A stretch of DNA of 43,179 nt from a virus (IMGVR_UViG_2561511241_000008:1-43179), one strand, 5' to 3'; positions 22,036 to 39,685 are shown, counted from the stretch's first letter. Numbers and translations: made by a program. The notes: generated by a model not told the origin, from the sequence alone.

Positions 22036-23528
22036 CCAACTCCGCAAGGTATGTTGTAGCTTGAGTAATCAATATCTTTAGGATCTTTGATGTCTCGCAT
22101 CTGTATTGCAAAACGCCTCATCATGTAGCCATAGCGAACAGCAGAAAGGATGTCGTCATTTAGCTTGACGATCTTCCCGTTCTCATCGCGGTGATACAGG
22201 CGAAACTCTTCAAAGAATGGCTCGCAGGTGTTAAATACCTTGAAACGACCGTCGAGCATCATGTCGCGTATCTCTGCTATCCCGGGTTCGACCGCATTAC
22301 CTCCATCAGGCCATGTTGCATGATCTGGCAACATGTCGAACCCAGCTTCGGCGTATTGTTCCTTGAGCTGAGCGCCGCCTCCCTTTTCGTGCTGATGCCC
22401 GTCATGAGGCCAAGCCGTAGGGGTGTTTTTGCTCCATGCTTTAACAGCACTCCATGCCTCTGTCGCCTTCTTCTGTTTGGCCTTCCAGACGCGAGAAAGA
22501 TAAATCACGTCCTCGTCTTTATCCCACCAAAGCTGGATATGTGCCTGTGGGTGATCCCATCCGAAGTCCATTGCATTGATGACGTAGAAGTGATCAGGAC
22601 ACTCGAACGGCTGACACTTAATCGTCTCTTCCGGTATCTGGAAGATTCGACCGCTACCCATCGTAGGAATACCGCGAGCACGCGCCTCTCTCTCATGCTC
22701 GGGATAGGATGCGATGATTTGCTCTTTCTGTTCGTCTGTGTAGTGCTCAGCGTCATAGATGGTCATGTTGACCACTTTCTGCGACTTGCTGGGATTCTTC
22801 AGGAACTTGGTAACAACGTCAGACATCCCCATCAGCGGGGTAAACGTCAGAATTGAGAATTGCCCGTATTTGTTGGTACGGGTAAGACCTTCGCCATAAA
22901 TGCTGTATGGTGGCTCTTCGTCAAACCACACGCCGTGGATTGTGTCACCCTGCCAGCGAGCGCGGCCTTGCGAGTATGGTTTGAAGTAGCAGATTGAAAT
23001 GCCATCTTCAACGCCATCAGCCGTGTGATGCTTAACCAGAAGATGATCAACAAGGTTCGGAAAGAAAGGAGACTTCTTCCAGCTAATGATGTCTTCTTTA
23101 GGTATGGAACCGTAGCCTGGCTCATCATTCTCTTCGATACGACCACACAGGATGCGTTGAGTCGTTTTGGTTACAGTCTCGTTTGTCTCGCCGCCAATCC
23201 AGAAGACAACAGGCTCATAGAAACGCTTACCTTTCCACTCACCGCCATATTTACCATCAGCAGGATAGCCTTTTGTGCCCGGGTAACGCCCGGTAAGGTG
23301 AAACGCGACTTCAGCAGCACCAGTAAATGACTTACCAAGCTGGTTACCAGCCATAAAACATCGCTCTGGATAGTCATGCCCGGCGTCGATGAACTCACGC
23401 TGTTTGCTGTATGGCGTAAATTCATATAGCAGGTGTGTGTTACGGTAGTTCTCTTCTTCTTCGAGTAGCTCGAGCAATTCGATTTGCTCTTCGTCGCTCA
23501 AGTTATCAAGAATCGCGTCCAGTTCCAC
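22032..23528 (-). CDS. Terminase large subunit (P22 gp2-like)
   Basis: 498 aa, acidic N-terminus, ATPase-like motifs; synteny. Confidence 0.85.
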
Positions 23529-23994
23529 GGTTGAATAGCTCCTTGATACGAGAGCGCCGCTTATCGCGATCTCCCTTATCAGGTGTCACGTCTTCAACTT
23601 GCGACTGCTCTTTGAGGCCCAAATCACGGGCGATGATGTTAGCGTTGAGAAGGTCAGCGGCTGCGCCAGAGAATTTCTGGTCGTAGATGATGTCTTCCGC
23701 TCGTGATGTGACGTCAGAAAAACCTTCCATTGACCGGAAGGTTCCCCATGTTTGCCTGGTGATATCAAGGAAGGTACACAATCCTGAAATAGTCATGGCT
23801 CGCATCTTAGGGACATTAGCCTTAATTATTTCTCCCTGATATGAAAATACCTTACCCTCCCATAGCGGGTTATCATCAGCCCACTCGAAGTATTCACAAC
23901 AAGCAGCCCACAGCGCCTCAGGCGATTCGAATTTAGGATTTCGCCCATGACTACTGCGGGCCTCCCAAAATCGGTTGCCCTTTGGTGCTGCCAT
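23506..23994 (-). CDS. Terminase small subunit (P22 gp3-like)
   Basis: 162 aa; overlaps TerL start. Confidence 0.75.
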
Positions 23995-24073: not shown

Positions 24074-24316
24074 TTATGCTCCGGTAGTGAACAGGTCTAA
24101 CGCTTCCTTCGATTTACGCACCGCTTCGATTGTGCGGGTCGTGATATCTGAATTAGCGCCGCCTGACTGGAAGTGAATTTTGAATAGCTCAAGCTTCAGC
24201 TCGTCAGTGCCAATGAACTGAAATGCTTCTTCTGCGGCTGCGTTCTGGTTCATGACCAGTTTGTAAATCTCTAGCTGGAATTTCTGTTCTTCAGTCATGG
24301 GAATAATCTCTGCCAT
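24074..24316 (-). CDS. Hypothetical 80-aa protein (moron locus)
   Basis: ORF only. Confidence 0.4.
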   Translation of the reverse strand: MAEIIPMTEEQKFQLEIYKLVMNQNAAAEEAFQFIGTDELKLELFKIHFQSGGANSDITTRTIEAVRKSKEALDLFTTGA

Positions 24317-24419: not shown

Positions 24420-24800
24420 CTACTGTTCGCTTAGCTTCTGCTTCAGCAAGTAACCTTCGAGCATCCAGATTTTGTTTACAGCATTTTGCCGGGCAATCTT
24501 CCGACCAATTTCTGCATCAAAATTTTCAGGGCTTGCACAGGCACTCTCTCCGGTGACGGTGAAGCCATTCTTCAGCACCAGTACGCAGAAAGTGAGCAAC
24601 TTCAATGGTGATAAATCACGATCGCCTTCTTCTGGTTTTTCTCTGCCACAATATTCGTTGCTGGAAATGGCACCATTTCGTCCATCATAAGCAGTAAAGT
24701 AATGCTCGCTTTTAATCACGTCTTCGATGTGCTGCGGGGTGATTCGCGGTGCCGTTTTGCCTTTCTCAACGATTTCTTTTTCGATTTGCTGGTCGTTCAT
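24420..24800 (-). CDS. Hypothetical 126-aa protein (moron locus)
   Basis: ORF only. Confidence 0.45.
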   Translation of the reverse strand: MNDQQIEKEIVEKGKTAPRITPQHIEDVIKSEHYFTAYDGRNGAISSNEYCGREKPEEGDRDLSPLKLLTFCVLVLKNGFTVTGESACASPENFDAEIGRKIARQNAVNKIWMLEGYLLKQKLSEQ

Positions 24801-25034: not shown

Positions 25035-25514
25035 TTAAATGATTTGCCAGTCTTCAGCCATCAGGTCGCCAATGGATGGAACCCATGTAGCAAGGCGGTT
25101 CTGTGAGTTTTTCAATACAAGCGTGTCATTGAAAGTTGGCTCGCCAACATATTCGCCAAAGCCATAACCCAACGCAGACGCTAATTTTTCCCCTTTCACG
25201 AGATAAACAAACTGGTCTTTCCCATTCCATCCTGCCCGCTGCAAACTTTTGCCCTGTTTTAACGCTTCCATGGCAAGGCCGAAACTTAACCCTGATACCG
25301 GACGATAAGCCTTTTCGAATACTTCTTTTGGACTCCAGCTAACGTAGCCATCAAAGCGATCGGTGTTAGGTTTTCCGCCATCCAGATATTCAACCAGATA
25401 GCCTTCATCCTCGCCGTTTTCTCCGGCAGGAAGCTGCCAGCCACGAAAATCGTTATATGCCTGTCTCGTCATCGGAAAGGCGTTAATCAGTTTTACGCCA
25501 ATATGCTGGGTCAT
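25035..25514 (-). CDS. DUF2829-domain protein (Tad2-like) with ~70-aa N-terminal extension
   Basis: C-terminal half has AMEALKQGKSLQRAGWNGK...FVYLV...DLMAEDWQII, matching the DUF2829 signature as I recall it. Confidence 0.55.
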   Translation of the reverse strand: MTQHIGVKLINAFPMTRQAYNDFRGWQLPAGENGEDEGYLVEYLDGGKPNTDRFDGYVSWSPKEVFEKAYRPVSGLSFGLAMEALKQGKSLQRAGWNGKDQFVYLVKGEKLASALGYGFGEYVGEPTFNDTLVLKNSQNRLATWVPSIGDLMAEDWQII

Positions 25515-25735
25515 AAAATTACCTATGGAGTTGGGAATAAAAAACCCCGCGAATGCGAAGCTAAATCCTGGTGTTTGTGATGACTGGCTCTTATCTCAAC
25601 GCTGCCCCTTACCGCGCGCCAGATGCTCAATATCAAGCATCAGCAATGAGATGTTTAATCTGGATTTACTCCAGAAGTGATCACCACCCTGTCTACAGAG
25701 CCAGATGTGAAGGATGATGAGTAAAATTATCGCTA

Positions 25736-26203
25736 TCATCGAAGGCATTGCGTCCTGATGTATTCCTGAAGCGTTCTCAGTGCTGTTTGGTCGCGGATAA
25801 TTCCGTCCCGGACACCGAGAACGTTTCGTCCAGCAACTGGAGAGAGTTCGACGGTGGCATCATTGCCCATGCCGGAGGCGCTGGAGGTTTCGGCTGAGGA
25901 TGGCACAGGGCATTTTCCTTTGACGAGCACCCTGCCACCATTATCAAGCTTGCGCCGAAGAGCATCATTTTCAGTTTTCGCATCAGCTAACTCCTTCGTG
26001 TATTTAGCATCGAGTGCATCAGCAGAACGCTGGCGCTGCTGCATGTCAGTAATGGTGGCGGTCGCCTGCTTCAGCTCACTGACTTTTTTATCGCGCTGTT
26101 CTTTGTAGGCGATGGCGTTATCACGGTAATGATTAACAGCCCATGACAGGCAGACGATGATGCAGATAACCAGAGCGGAGATAATCGCGGTGACTCTGCT
26201 CAT
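25736..26203 (-). CDS. Rz: Rz i-spanin
   Basis: N-terminus [30 protein letters not shown] matches lambda Rz; C-terminal half diverges. Confidence 0.85.
25777..25983 (-). CDS. Rz1: Rz1 o-spanin lipoprotein (embedded in Rz, +1 frame)
   Basis: lipobox MVAGCSS, proline-rich; embedded inside Rz. Confidence 0.7.
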
Positions 26204-27651: not shown

Positions 27652-28275
27652 CTAACGTGTGACCGCATTCAAAATGTTGTCTGCGATTGACTCTTCTTTG
27701 TGGCATTGCACCACCAGAGCGTCATACAGCGGCTTAACAGTGCGTGACCAGGTGGGTTGGGTAAGATTTGGGATTAGCATCGTCACAGCGCGATATGCGG
27801 CGCTTGCTGGCATCCTTGAATAGCCGACACCTTTGCATCTTCCGCATTCTTTCTCAACAACTCTCCCCCACTGCTCTGTTTTTGCTATATCAACCGCACG
27901 GCCTGTACCGTGACAATCTCTGCATCTTGCGCCAGGCGTCGCGGCACTACGGCAATAATCCGCATAAGCGAATGTTGCGAGCACTTGCAGTACCTTTGCC
28001 TTAGTATTTCCTTCGAGCTTTGCCACACCACGGTATTTCCCCGATACCTTGTGTGCAAATTGCATCAGATAGTTGATAGCCTTTTGTTTGTCGTTCTGGC
28101 TGAGTTCGTGCTTACCACAGAATGCAGCCATTCCGAATCCGGCTTGTGATTGCGCCATCCCCATAGCAGCCATCACATCAGTACCGGAAAGAGAGTCAGA
28201 AGCCGTGGCCCGTGGTGAGTCACTCATCATCGGGCTTTTTGGCGAATGAAATTTAGCCACGCTTTCGAGTCTCAT
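27652..28275 (-). CDS. Q: Late antiterminator Q (lambda-type)
   Basis: 207 aa; cysteine cluster CRDCHGTG...CGRCKGVG; position upstream of pR'. Confidence 0.9.
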
Positions 28276-35624: not shown

Positions 35625-36626
35625 ATGAATTCTATTGAAAATCATGATGTTTATGTGTATACAGGCGATATTCATCGTGATGGTTATCTTGATCTCACCA
35701 ATGAAATCAAGAAACGTAAGTCACAACATGGATTAAAAGAGAATGTTATCTTCTGTGTTGCTACTTATGGCGGTGATCCAAATGCAGGTTATCGTATAGG
35801 TAGAGCTCTACAACACCATTATGAAACGGTAACACTTTTAGTTGTTGGACCATGCAAAAGTGCTGGTACACTAATAGCTATAGCAGCCAATAAACTTGTT
35901 ATTGGTGACATGGGGGAGCTTGGGCCATTAGATATCCAACTGAAAAAAAACGATGAAATAGGTGAGATGAGTTCTGGTTTAGCTATCATGACAGCTCTTG
36001 ATGCTCTAAAGGAACGCTCTATTTCAGCGTTTAACTCACACCTTGTTAAGATAAGATACGAAAATCAGATAAGTACTAAAATGTCTGCTGATATCGCGAC
36101 CAGACTTACAGAAGCGTTGATAGCACCTATGGCCGCACAGATAGATCCAATAAAGCTTGGTGAACATCAGCGCGCAATGAGTATAGCTATCACTTATGGC
36201 CAACGATTAGCAGACAAACCAAGCAGCCTAAAAGAAGGGGCGTTAGGCAAACTAATAGCCTCATATCCTTCACATGGATTTGTTATAGACAGAAAAGAAG
36301 CCAAGGAACTTTTCAAGTGTGTTGAGCATCCTAAAGGTATAACAGAAATACTCTATAATCTTTTCTGTGACAAAATTCATAATGGTGACATTCCAACATT
36401 TGGAAAGCCGAGGGTTATTGATTGTACAACGTATCTACAAAAAGAGGAAAAAGCTAATGCCGAAGAATCTGCAACCGGAGATGGAAATTCTCAACAAGAT
36501 GTTGGAAAGCCAGATCCAAGAAGGTCACGATCTGGCAAAAAAAGCGGAACAACACCTGAACGAGATCAAGAAGGAATTGGAGCCGTATCAATTCAACCAC
36601 CAGATGAACAGCAACCTAATGCATGA
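35625..36626 (+). CDS. ClpP/SppA-fold serine peptidase-like protein in rexAB slot
   Basis: motifs TYGGDPNAGYRIGRAL and VVGPCKSAGTLIAIAA resemble ClpP/SppA-family active-site region; AGGGAG 8 nt before ATG; low-complexity C-terminal tail. Confidence 0.55.
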   Translation: MNSIENHDVYVYTGDIHRDGYLDLTNEIKKRKSQHGLKENVIFCVATYGGDPNAGYRIGRALQHHYETVTLLVVGPCKSAGTLIAIAANKLVIGDMGELGPLDIQLKKNDEIGEMSSGLAIMTALDALKERSISAFNSHLVKIRYENQISTKMSADIATRLTEALIAPMAAQIDPIKLGEHQRAMSIAITYGQRLADKPSSLKEGALGKLIASYPSHGFVIDRKEAKELFKCVEHPKGITEILYNLFCDKIHNGDIPTFGKPRVIDCTTYLQKEEKANAEESATGDGNSQQDVGKPDPRRSRSGKKSGTTPERDQEGIGAVSIQPPDEQQPNA

Positions 36627-38582: not shown

Positions 38583-38716
38583 GCACTGTGTATTCATTCC
38601 AACGAGTGAATACACGGAGCAATGTCGCTCGTAACCAAACAGGAGCCGACTTGTTCTGATTATTGGAAATCTTCTTTGCCCTCCGGTGTGAGGGCAATTT
38701 TTTTGACGGAGGATAT

Positions 38717-39685
38717 ATGAGTGAAGTAACAGATTTAGTTGTTATTGAAAAAGCAAATGCAATGACTGTATTTCAGTCTGCCGACCAGATTGAAGAAATC
38801 CTTCAAAAGGTTGAACGTGAAGTTATGTCCTTTGTGCCTGATATCACAACGGCAAAGGGCAGAAAGGAGATCGCTTCTCTGGCGTATAAAGTTGCGCAGA
38901 CGAAAACATATCTCGATGGTCTTGGAAAAGACCTTGTTGCTGAACTGAAGGAAATTCCAAAGCTAATTGATGCCAACCGCAAGACAGTGCGCGATCGCCT
39001 TGATGAGCTGAAAGCCAAGGCACGCCAGCCTCTTACTGATTATGAAGAGGAACAGGCGCGAATTAAAGCTGAAGAAGAAGCTAAGGCAGCAGCTGAAGCT
39101 CTCGCAAAGCAAATTGAGTCTGACCATGAAATAGCGATTTTGATGGATCGCGAATTTGACCGCCAAAGAGAAGAGGCAAGACTCAAAGCGGAGCAGGAAA
39201 AGCGAGAGCATGAAGAACGCTTAAAAAGAGAAGCTGAAGAGAAAGCCAGAGCTGAAGCCGAAGCAAAGGCAAAAGCCGAAATTGAAGCAGCAGCAAGGCG
39301 AGAAGCAGAAGCTAAGGCCGCAGCGGAACGTGCAGAGCGTGAACGCATTGAAGCCGAGCAACGAGCACAGCGCGAAACAAAAGAGGCAGCAGAACGAGCT
39401 GAAAGAGAAAAGCAGGCGGCAATTGAAGCAGAACGCCGAAAAGCACAGGAGGAGGCTGAACGAATCCGGCGCGAGGCTGAAGCAAAAGAGCAAGCCAGAA
39501 TAGCAGAAGAAAAAAGAATCAAGGAAGAAGAAGAGCGTAGAGCAAAGGATAAAGCTCACCGGAAAGAAGTAAATAACAAAATACTTGCTGACCTTATCAA
39601 GGTTGGCGCATCAGAAGATGTTGCTAAAAATATCATAACAGCCATCGTAAAAGGCGAAGTATTCGCAACAAAAATAACCTACTAA
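38717..39685 (+). CDS. Coiled-coil protein with Ala/Glu/Lys/Arg-rich repeat core
   Basis: ORF 38663-39685, ATG at 38717 after GGAGGA; central EAKAKAE-type repeats. Confidence 0.5.
   Translation: MSEVTDLVVIEKANAMTVFQSADQIEEILQKVEREVMSFVPDITTAKGRKEIASLAYKVAQTKTYLDGLGKDLVAELKEIPKLIDANRKTVRDRLDELKAKARQPLTDYEEEQARIKAEEEAKAAAEALAKQIESDHEIAILMDREFDRQREEARLKAEQEKREHEERLKREAEEKARAEAEAKAKAEIEAAARREAEAKAAAERAERERIEAEQRAQRETKEAAERAEREKQAAIEAERRKAQEEAERIRREAEAKEQARIAEEKRIKEEEERRAKDKAHRKEVNNKILADLIKVGASEDVAKNIITAIVKGEVFATKITY

Follow-up and report, generated by a model that had tools for sequence, protein, structure and literature searches.

Here we report that a gene in the late operon of an Escherichia coli P22-like prophage encodes a two-domain protein of 159 amino acids (aa), in which a predicted Tad2-type sponge for immune signalling nucleotides is preceded by an autonomous domain, hereafter the N-domain, that sequence comparisons tie specifically to immune-signal sponges of several unrelated families. 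The prophage was analysed over a stretch of 43,179 nucleotides (IMGVR_UViG_2561511241_000008:1-43179), referred to below as the window. As a gene, the element is a member of a known family, and its Tad2 assignment is already implicit in public annotation; the combination of the N-domain with Tad2 is a variant so far uncharacterised, on which a literature search gave a passing remark only. Sponges for immune messengers are a main phage route against the Thoeris, CBASS (cyclic oligonucleotide-based antiphage signalling system) and Pycsar defences, and recent new sponge families came from asking what known sponges are fused to. By this fusion criterion the N-domain, which has no database entry, is among the most consistent sponge partners: it is fused, in whatever order, with five or more unrelated sponge families. 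The phages concerned infect Proteobacteria, Bacteroidota (crAss-like phages) and Clostridium, and the model phage N4 is one of them. The gene and its two parts are as follows.

25035..25514, minus strand: gene of the two-domain protein (N-domain plus Tad2 domain), 159 aa, ATG start, stop codon included, from the list of open reading frames (ORFs).
25293..25514, minus strand: N-domain, residues 1-74, beta-beta-alpha-beta-beta-alpha, sponge-associated, from the AlphaFold2 model and standalone homologues.
25038..25292, minus strand: Tad2 (PF11195) domain, residues 75-159, predicted to sequester a TIR-derived ADP-ribose (ADPR)-type signal, from Pfam, similarity to SPO1 Tad2, and Foldseek.

A preliminary description of this gene had pointed to a set of DUF2829 motifs in its C-terminal part, all of which are present (ALKQGK at residues 84-89, GWNGK at 95-99, FVYLV at 102-106, and DLMAEDWQII at 150-159), and the profile search bears out the family: PF11195 'Tad2-like', formerly DUF2829, matches residues 77-159 with E=6.4e-22 (score 78.3 bits, gathering cut-off 25 bits), the match covering positions 2-73 of the 73 in the profile. 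Among solved structures, the best relative detected by phmmer is SPO1 Tad2 (Gp34.65; 8SME and 8WJE, also 8SMF and 8SMG), the founding Thoeris anti-defence 2 sponge, which aligns over 85 residues without gaps at 48% identity (E~3e-26), followed by ModTad2 (1.6e-18). The AlphaFold2 model of the 159-aa protein, built on 38 homologues (predicted local distance difference test score, pLDDT, 90.5), contains the helix alpha1, antiparallel beta-sheet and short helices alpha2 and alpha3 of the Tad2 fold, with helices at residues 78-86, 108-114 and 148-152 and strands at 91-93, 102-106, 131-135, 141-143 and 156-158. All 24 significant Foldseek matches of this model in the PDB are Tad2 structures, the SPO1 Tad2 chains scoring best (template modelling (TM) score normalised to the target, 0.81-0.94). 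Judged by sequence and model, the C-terminal half is almost certainly a Tad2-family member. The call is an ordinary one, because the identical protein in E. coli 90-9280 (WP_000191869.1) is labelled 'DUF2829 domain-containing protein' in RefSeq, its homologue in phage Kapi1 (Kapi1_043) has been proposed to be Tad2-like, and N4 gp49 shares the architecture. The whole protein also matches phrog_872 of the PHROGs database (E=1.9e-69). Of 5,426 complete E. coli genomes, 4 contain the exact nucleotide sequence of the gene and 44 contain alleles that are at least 90% identical; every copy is chromosomal, and the listed ones carry the same DUF2829 label. PADLOC and NCBIfam scans of the gene, its Acb4-family neighbour and the accessory ORFs described below gave nothing significant.

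An alternative identity for the whole protein, an AcrIIA7-type anti-CRISPR, is highly improbable, even though AcrIIA7 is itself a DUF2829 protein and the counterpart in phage Huey, CDS0064, is annotated as 'anti-CRISPR protein'. E. coli carries type I CRISPR-Cas and is not known to carry type II. The Huey label appears to be generic automated annotation, because the Acb4 homologue of Huey bears it too. AcrIIA7, also named HgmTad2 (8KBI, 9KZR), belongs to the same Pfam family, but it matches weakly and along residues 76-111 alone (E about 1e-5 to 1e-6), corresponding to ~35 first domain residues, whereas the similarity to SPO1 Tad2 spans the whole domain; its target-normalised TM score is 0.62-0.65 versus up to 0.94 for SPO1 Tad2, and its long insertion, which binds cyclic dinucleotides (CDNs), is absent here. 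When re-tested, HgmTad2 showed no inhibition of SpyCas9, and it is a sponge of glycocyclic ADPR (gcADPR) and CDNs.

The ligand pocket is described in the SPO1 Tad2-gcADPR structure, in which W25 and W73 form a van der Waals sandwich of the ligand, N26 and D79 contact its phosphates and hydroxyls, T78, I63 and T65 contact the adenine, and N26, D67, H71, W73, S76 and D79 coordinate water. With these residue numbers mapped onto the prophage protein by an offset of +71, W25, N26, W73, D79 and S76 correspond to W96, N97, W144, D150 and S147, all of which are kept and are invariant in 38 of 38 two-domain homologues. The insertion between beta2 and beta3 is likewise short and SPO1-like (GYGFGEYVGEP here versus GFGFGEYINEP in SPO1 Tad2). 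The two proteins are thus alike in fold, in the short insertion and in the core residues W, N, W, D and S; they differ in that SPO1 Tad2 is a single-domain protein of 89 aa with a Bacillus host, whereas the E. coli late-operon prophage gene adds a 74-aa domain on helix alpha1. A candidate anti-defence nucleotide sponge, as the preliminary description had put it, is therefore a fair reading of family, predicted fold and invariant core pocket.

We propose that the gene supplies a two-module counter-defence protein, made from the late operon of the prophage. Residues 75-159 should form a homotetramer like that of SPO1 Tad2, with inter-protomer pockets that would enclose a TIR-made ADPR-derived signal, W96 and W144 sandwiching it and N97 with D150 holding it in place. 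With its ligand enclosed in this way, the sponge would keep the Thoeris effector from ever being activated. By sequence and model, the Tad2 half probably does sequester a TIR-derived ADPR-type signal and act as an anti-Thoeris factor, and the ligand is most likely the 3' cyclic ADPR (3'cADPR, that is 1''-3' gcADPR) of type I Thoeris; we infer from homology that the domain forms a tetramer, which ligand it takes up, and that it counters Thoeris. Several points weigh against this proposal. Four adenine- or water-contact positions differ from SPO1 Tad2 (T78 to G149, T65 to N136, D67 to Q138, and H71 to A142) and vary within the family, while S147 is kept and L134, at the site of SPO1 I63, is conservative; judged from sequence, the changes are compatible with an altered ligand specificity. 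The Tad2 family is very plastic in experiments, its members acting variously against Thoeris of type I, II or IV, against CBASS or against Pycsar, and since Tad2 homologues have switched to His-ADPR, N7-cADPR, CDNs or cyclic UMP and CMP (cUMP/cCMP), the ligand here may differ from 3'cADPR. The oligomeric state could differ as well, because the N-domain joins alpha1, which is the tetramerisation helix of SPO1 Tad2. Placement in a late operon is unusual for an anti-defence gene, and neither a scan nor inspection by eye revealed a sigma-70-type promoter upstream on the coding strand. Finally, no binding or infection study was found in the literature for this or any other two-domain N-Tad2 protein.

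Given the plasticity of the family, the Tad2 domain might instead, or additionally, sequester a non-Thoeris signal such as the CDNs of CBASS or the cUMP/cCMP of Pycsar, which we consider unlikely. Some Tad2 homologues do bind cGG, cGAMP or cUMP/cCMP (second pocket, V-dimer interface), and F44, which occludes the second pocket in SPO1 Tad2, is L115 here, at a position variable in the family. However, the long beta2-beta3 insertion that builds the CDN pocket in HgmTad2 and SptTad2 belongs to the Kapi1_043 allele and not to this one, whose short form is that of SPO1 Tad2, which binds no cyclic nucleotides; moreover, a homologue of a dedicated anti-CBASS sponge, Acb4, is encoded next door.

The N-terminal part of the protein had been described beforehand as a ~70-aa region of unknown function fused to the Tad2 domain as an extension. 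Its lack of annotation stands, as residues 1-74 have no sequence match in Pfam, NCBIfam, PADLOC or the PDB; what does not stand is the notion of an extension, since this part is an autonomous and widespread domain. Its AlphaFold2 model has a pLDDT of 94.5. Two protein families of the PHROGs database, phrog_9467 and phrog_32732, match the N-terminus alone, so that the domain recombines with other C-termini, and a search with the N-domain only retrieved many standalone proteins of 73-90 aa. One of these is encoded in the complete genome of Erwinia phage phiEaP8, beside the virion RNA polymerase gene and with no adjoining sponge gene. A profile of 41 standalone sequences, run against a library of 1.84 billion proteins, yielded 2,725 clusters at 50% identity, of which 1,319 have E<=1e-10, with proteins of 76-354 aa, and the domain was found in 137 INPHARED phage records, including phages of Escherichia, Vibrio, Klebsiella, Pseudomonas and Clostridium, crAss-like phages and others. 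If its members are counter-defence modules, existing discovery pipelines would have missed the family for want of a Pfam entry.

The two halves of the protein differ in their conservation. Within the two-domain family, mean pairwise identity is 66.7% in the N-domain versus 55.5% in the Tad2 half, and columns conserved at 90% or more number 29 of 74 versus 17 of 85. Seven homologues and Kapi1_043 are 93-100% identical to the prophage protein in the N-domain and 39-48% in the Tad2 domain, and since the switch in identity falls at the domain junction, the Tad2 module has been exchanged while the N-domain was held constant. This pattern fits an arms-race module joined to one whose role or target does not vary. 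The clearest example is Kapi1_043 itself (L003, 1821-2342), which occupies the same genomic slot with the same upstream region and a 100% identical N-domain: it is identical through residue 81 and then diverges, with a long Tad2 insertion and about 45% identity in the Tad2 half. From the position of this divergence, the recombination breakpoint coincides with the boundary of the domains, and different Tad2 alleles follow a constant N-domain. Unlike the prophage studied here, the Kapi1 locus has no Acb4 neighbour. An identical architecture is found in gp49 of phage N4, where the N-domain profile matches with E=2.3e-33 and Tad2 with 8e-24, and the gene adjoins that of an Acb4 protein (gp48); N4 is however a lytic schitovirus, and its gp48/gp49 pair sits in the primase-virion RNA polymerase hotspot. 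Our literature search found no functional test of N4 gp49 or Kapi1_043.

The association with sponges, which is almost exclusive, emerged from the proteins in which the N-domain occurs. Partners and positions were counted in 143 representatives, namely those of the best 150 of the N-domain search that were newly retrieved. In them the domain is N-terminal in 110 proteins and C-terminal in 13, has an internal position in another 13, and constitutes the whole protein in 7. Sponge domains account for 102 Pfam matches in this set: 45 to Tad2, 41 to PF21825 (Sequestin, a 3'cADPR sponge that was itself discovered through fusions to Tad2 and Acb4), 15 to PF13876 (the Acb4 anti-CBASS sponge family), and one to the Acb2/Tad1 hairpin. 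Beyond these, Pfam matched three domains once each: WDGH in one protein, and AP2 together with HNH_3 in another. Mixed arrays occur in any order, such as N-Sequestin-Tad2, Acb4-N-Sequestin and N-Sequestin-Acb4, and a fifth sponge partner is RyR Tad. Known sponge-sponge fusions, namely Tad2-Acb4 in Pasteurella phage Pm86, Acb4-Sequestin in Pseudomonas phage Ab09, and Tad2-Sequestin, are likewise modular chains of small homo-oligomeric anti-signalling domains, and the N-domain occurs within such arrays; they differ in that a ligand has been demonstrated for every one of their modules, unlike for the N-domain.

Two further observations were made on these partners. About 40 partner regions of 45-157 aa (including those of P0372, P0279, P0378, P0379 and P0252) belong to no Pfam family and group with no other sequence; by analogy with the other fusions, they are candidates for undescribed sponge families. 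In protein P0312 (354 aa), the homing-endonuclease-like HNH_3 and AP2 domains lie between the N-domain and a Tad2 domain detected in two stretches, which suggests insertion of a mobile endonuclease at or near the domain junction.

The fifth partner offers a structural view of the domain. According to a 2026 preprint, RyR Tad (gp68 of Pectobacterium phage CB1) is a gcADPR sponge with a C-terminal half like the ryanodine-receptor Repeat12, and the N-terminal domain in its crystal structure is a beta1 strand-swapped dimer with a five-stranded sheet. Our N-domain profile matches residues 5-69 of gp68 (E=3e-11), and in BFVD a RyR-domain protein of Yersinia phage TG1 matches the N-domain fold (TM 0.75, E=1.9e-4). 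RyR Tad thus carries an N-domain of the same family, likewise fused upstream of a gcADPR sponge, although its sponge half is all-helical and Repeat12-like, not Tad2, and its N-domain is divergent and lacks the DGGKPN loop.

In our proposal, the N-domain would act as a module for strand-swapped dimerisation or for assembly, coupling sponge oligomers or lending them stability, and it may have its own binding site. We favour this assembly or dimerisation role tentatively. The same preprint reports that residues 1-86 of gp68 alone have no activity against type I Thoeris, a finding that counts against a two-module counter-defence protein, fits a scaffold role, and says nothing on other targets. A role as a scaffold only, in turn, leaves the standalone genes and the many conserved polar loop residues unexplained.

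It is possible, if somewhat doubtful, that the N-domain takes up a ligand of its own, another immune signal or a conserved metabolite, as a sponge or ligand-binding module, and that the protein has dual specificity, analogous to the Tad2-Acb4 and Acb4-Sequestin fusions. The same guilt-by-fusion logic uncovered Sequestin; barring the three single matches, the Pfam-detectable partners are four sponge families, to which RyR Tad is added; the domain takes N-terminal, internal or C-terminal positions like any unit of a multi-sponge array, and it also occurs as a standalone gene in anti-signalling hotspots. About 30 of its 74 positions are conserved at 90% or more, and these include aromatic, Arg/Lys and Ser/Asn residues of the kind found in nucleotide pockets, and the dimer seen in gp68 agrees with the homo-oligomeric state of known sponges. 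However, the gp68 N-terminal domain was inactive against type I Thoeris, and the extreme conservation of the N-domain contrasts with the diversifying pockets of real sponges. More broadly, and again as a minority expectation, the N-domain may represent a new and very large family (~2,700 clusters) of counter-defence modules with their own target, which could be an immune signal whose sponge is still undescribed or something common to signalling defences.

Less weight goes to the N-domain as a protein-binding inhibitor or adaptor, one that docks on a TIR protein, a cyclase sensor or an effector in the manner of Tad3-Tad8, a reading we hold to be improbable. Two long loops (residues 25-37 and 44-56) in which acidic and polar residues are conserved bring to mind the loop-insertion inhibitors Tad3-6, and the link to every sponge type would be explained if all sponge users had a target in common. 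Yet the partners are anti-Thoeris and anti-CBASS sponges, directed at systems without a common protein component, and the authors who annotated Tad3 in the same hotspot as the N-domain described the latter as a fold of no known function, which speaks against such an adaptor and leaves an identity with Tad3 itself unsupported. A variant in which the N-domain neutralises host guards that detect sponges (Panoptes, PanDA) is disfavoured, as N4 has an N-domain in gp49, yet PanDA restricts N4 via its Acb4. The remaining probability falls to other roles.

Other identities were considered for the N-domain and set aside. Lockin, which assembles into beta-rich hexamers and is found in Bacillus and similar hosts, is missing from the INPHARED genomes, where the N-domain has its 137 records, and TadIV-1 is a two-helix dimer confined to Straboviridae. 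DUF1653 (PF07866; 3BE3) shares 7% identity with the N-domain, its profile does not match even at E<=10, and it is itself without a known function. A cryptic second Tad2 repeat was not supported either, as the N-domain has no profile-profile similarity to the Tad2 domain. Net charge was uninformative as a discriminator between sponges and non-sponges, the median of the N-domain being -3 and SPO1 Tad2 also being acidic.

Should the N-domain act by itself as a sponge or inhibitor, counter-defence would gain a large new family; if it is an assembly module, it would reveal a common design principle for multivalent sponges. Either way, it offers an inexpensive means to annotate anti-defence islands and to predict sponge families from unclassified partners.

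Downstream of the N-Tad2 gene lies a second predicted sponge gene.

24420..24800, minus strand: anti-CBASS sponge homologue of the Acb4 family (PF13876; 126 aa), 234 bp downstream of the N-Tad2 gene, Pfam E=3.4e-35.

Its Pfam match reaches 120.8 bits versus a cut-off of 27 bits, and its direct match to the SPO1 Acb4 structure 9E4W is weak (E=0.007). Conservation of this neighbourhood was assessed in 80 IMG/VR loci carrying the N-domain, a sample that is biased to close relatives of the query and weak on standalone N-domain genes. A separate Acb4 or Sequestin gene lies within 3 kb on the same strand in 36 of these 80 loci, mostly adjoining or overlapping, and N-Tad2 stands beside Acb4, in either order, in 29 of the 80; the same pair is present in phages N4 (gp48/gp49) and Huey. 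Given this pairing across the IMG/VR loci, 25035-25514 and 24420-24800 constitute a recurrent two-gene sponge cassette. The window would thus hold a compact predicted cassette in an E. coli P22-like prophage, directed against Thoeris-type and CBASS-type signalling immunity. Two IMG/VR loci (L054, 639-3645; L057, 2989-5995) contain N-Tad2, a standalone Sequestin gene, and a second, N-domain-only ORF of 107 aa; therefore, a single phage can hold two copies of the N-domain. The numbering of the N4 pair could mislead annotation: Pfam PF13876 is titled 'N4 Gp49/Sf6 gene 66', yet GenBank EF056009 (L005; genes at 2109-2480 and 2480-2962) gives the number gp48 to the PF13876 (Acb4) protein and gp49 to the protein with the N-domain and Tad2.

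The window represents a complete prophage of the P22-like (Lederbergvirus) type, with a tRNA-Arg(CCT) gene at 1009-1083, which is the likely attachment site, a tyrosine integrase gene at 1209-2393, and a host gene of the formate/nitrite transporter family in the same end region (1-2393). The late operon runs on the minus strand from the Q antiterminator gene (27652-28275) through the holin, endolysin and Rz genes and a 50-aa ORF to the N-Tad2 gene, and continues with the PF13876, DUF2560, small terminase and large terminase genes. The features that bound the variable part are listed here.

25736..26203, minus strand: Rz spanin gene, upstream boundary of the variable region, PF03245, E=1.3e-28.
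25596..25748, minus strand: small hydrophobic ORF of 50 aa, overlapping the Rz end, positional equivalent of Kapi1_042, from the ORF list.
24074..24316, minus strand: DUF2560 gene, downstream boundary of the variable region, PF10834, E=1.1e-43.
23506..23994, minus strand: small terminase gene gp3, after the DUF2560 gene, PF16677, E=8.3e-31.

The earlier placement of the gene in a cargo hotspot agrees with this arrangement, in which it sits between Rz and the DUF2560 and small terminase genes. Huey has the same pair in the variable region, Kapi1 a variant of the Tad2 gene alone, and the genes there are different in Sf6, HK620 and E. coli 90-9280; as related phages keep the flanks and differ inside, the region is a real cargo hotspot. 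The 50-aa ORF has no Pfam match and may lie outside the cassette, and the annotation of its Kapi1 equivalent, Kapi1_042, includes a signal peptide.

Upstream of the N-Tad2 gene, a consensus scan detected one further element.

25537..25562, minus strand: terminator-like hairpin with an 8-bp stem and a T6 run, ending ~22 nucleotides upstream of the ATG.

The hairpin is kept in both the minimum free energy and centroid folds, the region being no stabler than its shuffles (z=-0.16), and it is conserved in Kapi1 and Huey. Kapi1 shares ~99-100% identity over the upstream 250 nucleotides and the first 81 codons. In lysogen cultures, Kapi1_043 was reported as the top-expressed prophage gene. The Kapi1 host, MP1, has no Thoeris. 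Since the scaffold and capsid genes were also among the top-expressed ones in that study, the signal may plausibly stem from late transcription in cells that were induced spontaneously. Thoeris has been linked to structural proteins, namely the capsid vertex protein for type IV and the tail fibre for type II, and we suggest a link to timing, as late-operon expression would coincide with structural-protein synthesis.

Two ORFs of the early/immunity region, both on the plus strand, were also noted in the window. The first, at 35625-36626 (333 aa), has a weak, sub-threshold match to a ClpP-like SDH protease and no PADLOC hit, and the second, at 38663-39685 (340 aa), has neither a Pfam match nor a PADLOC hit; both may be uncharacterised accessory (moron) genes.

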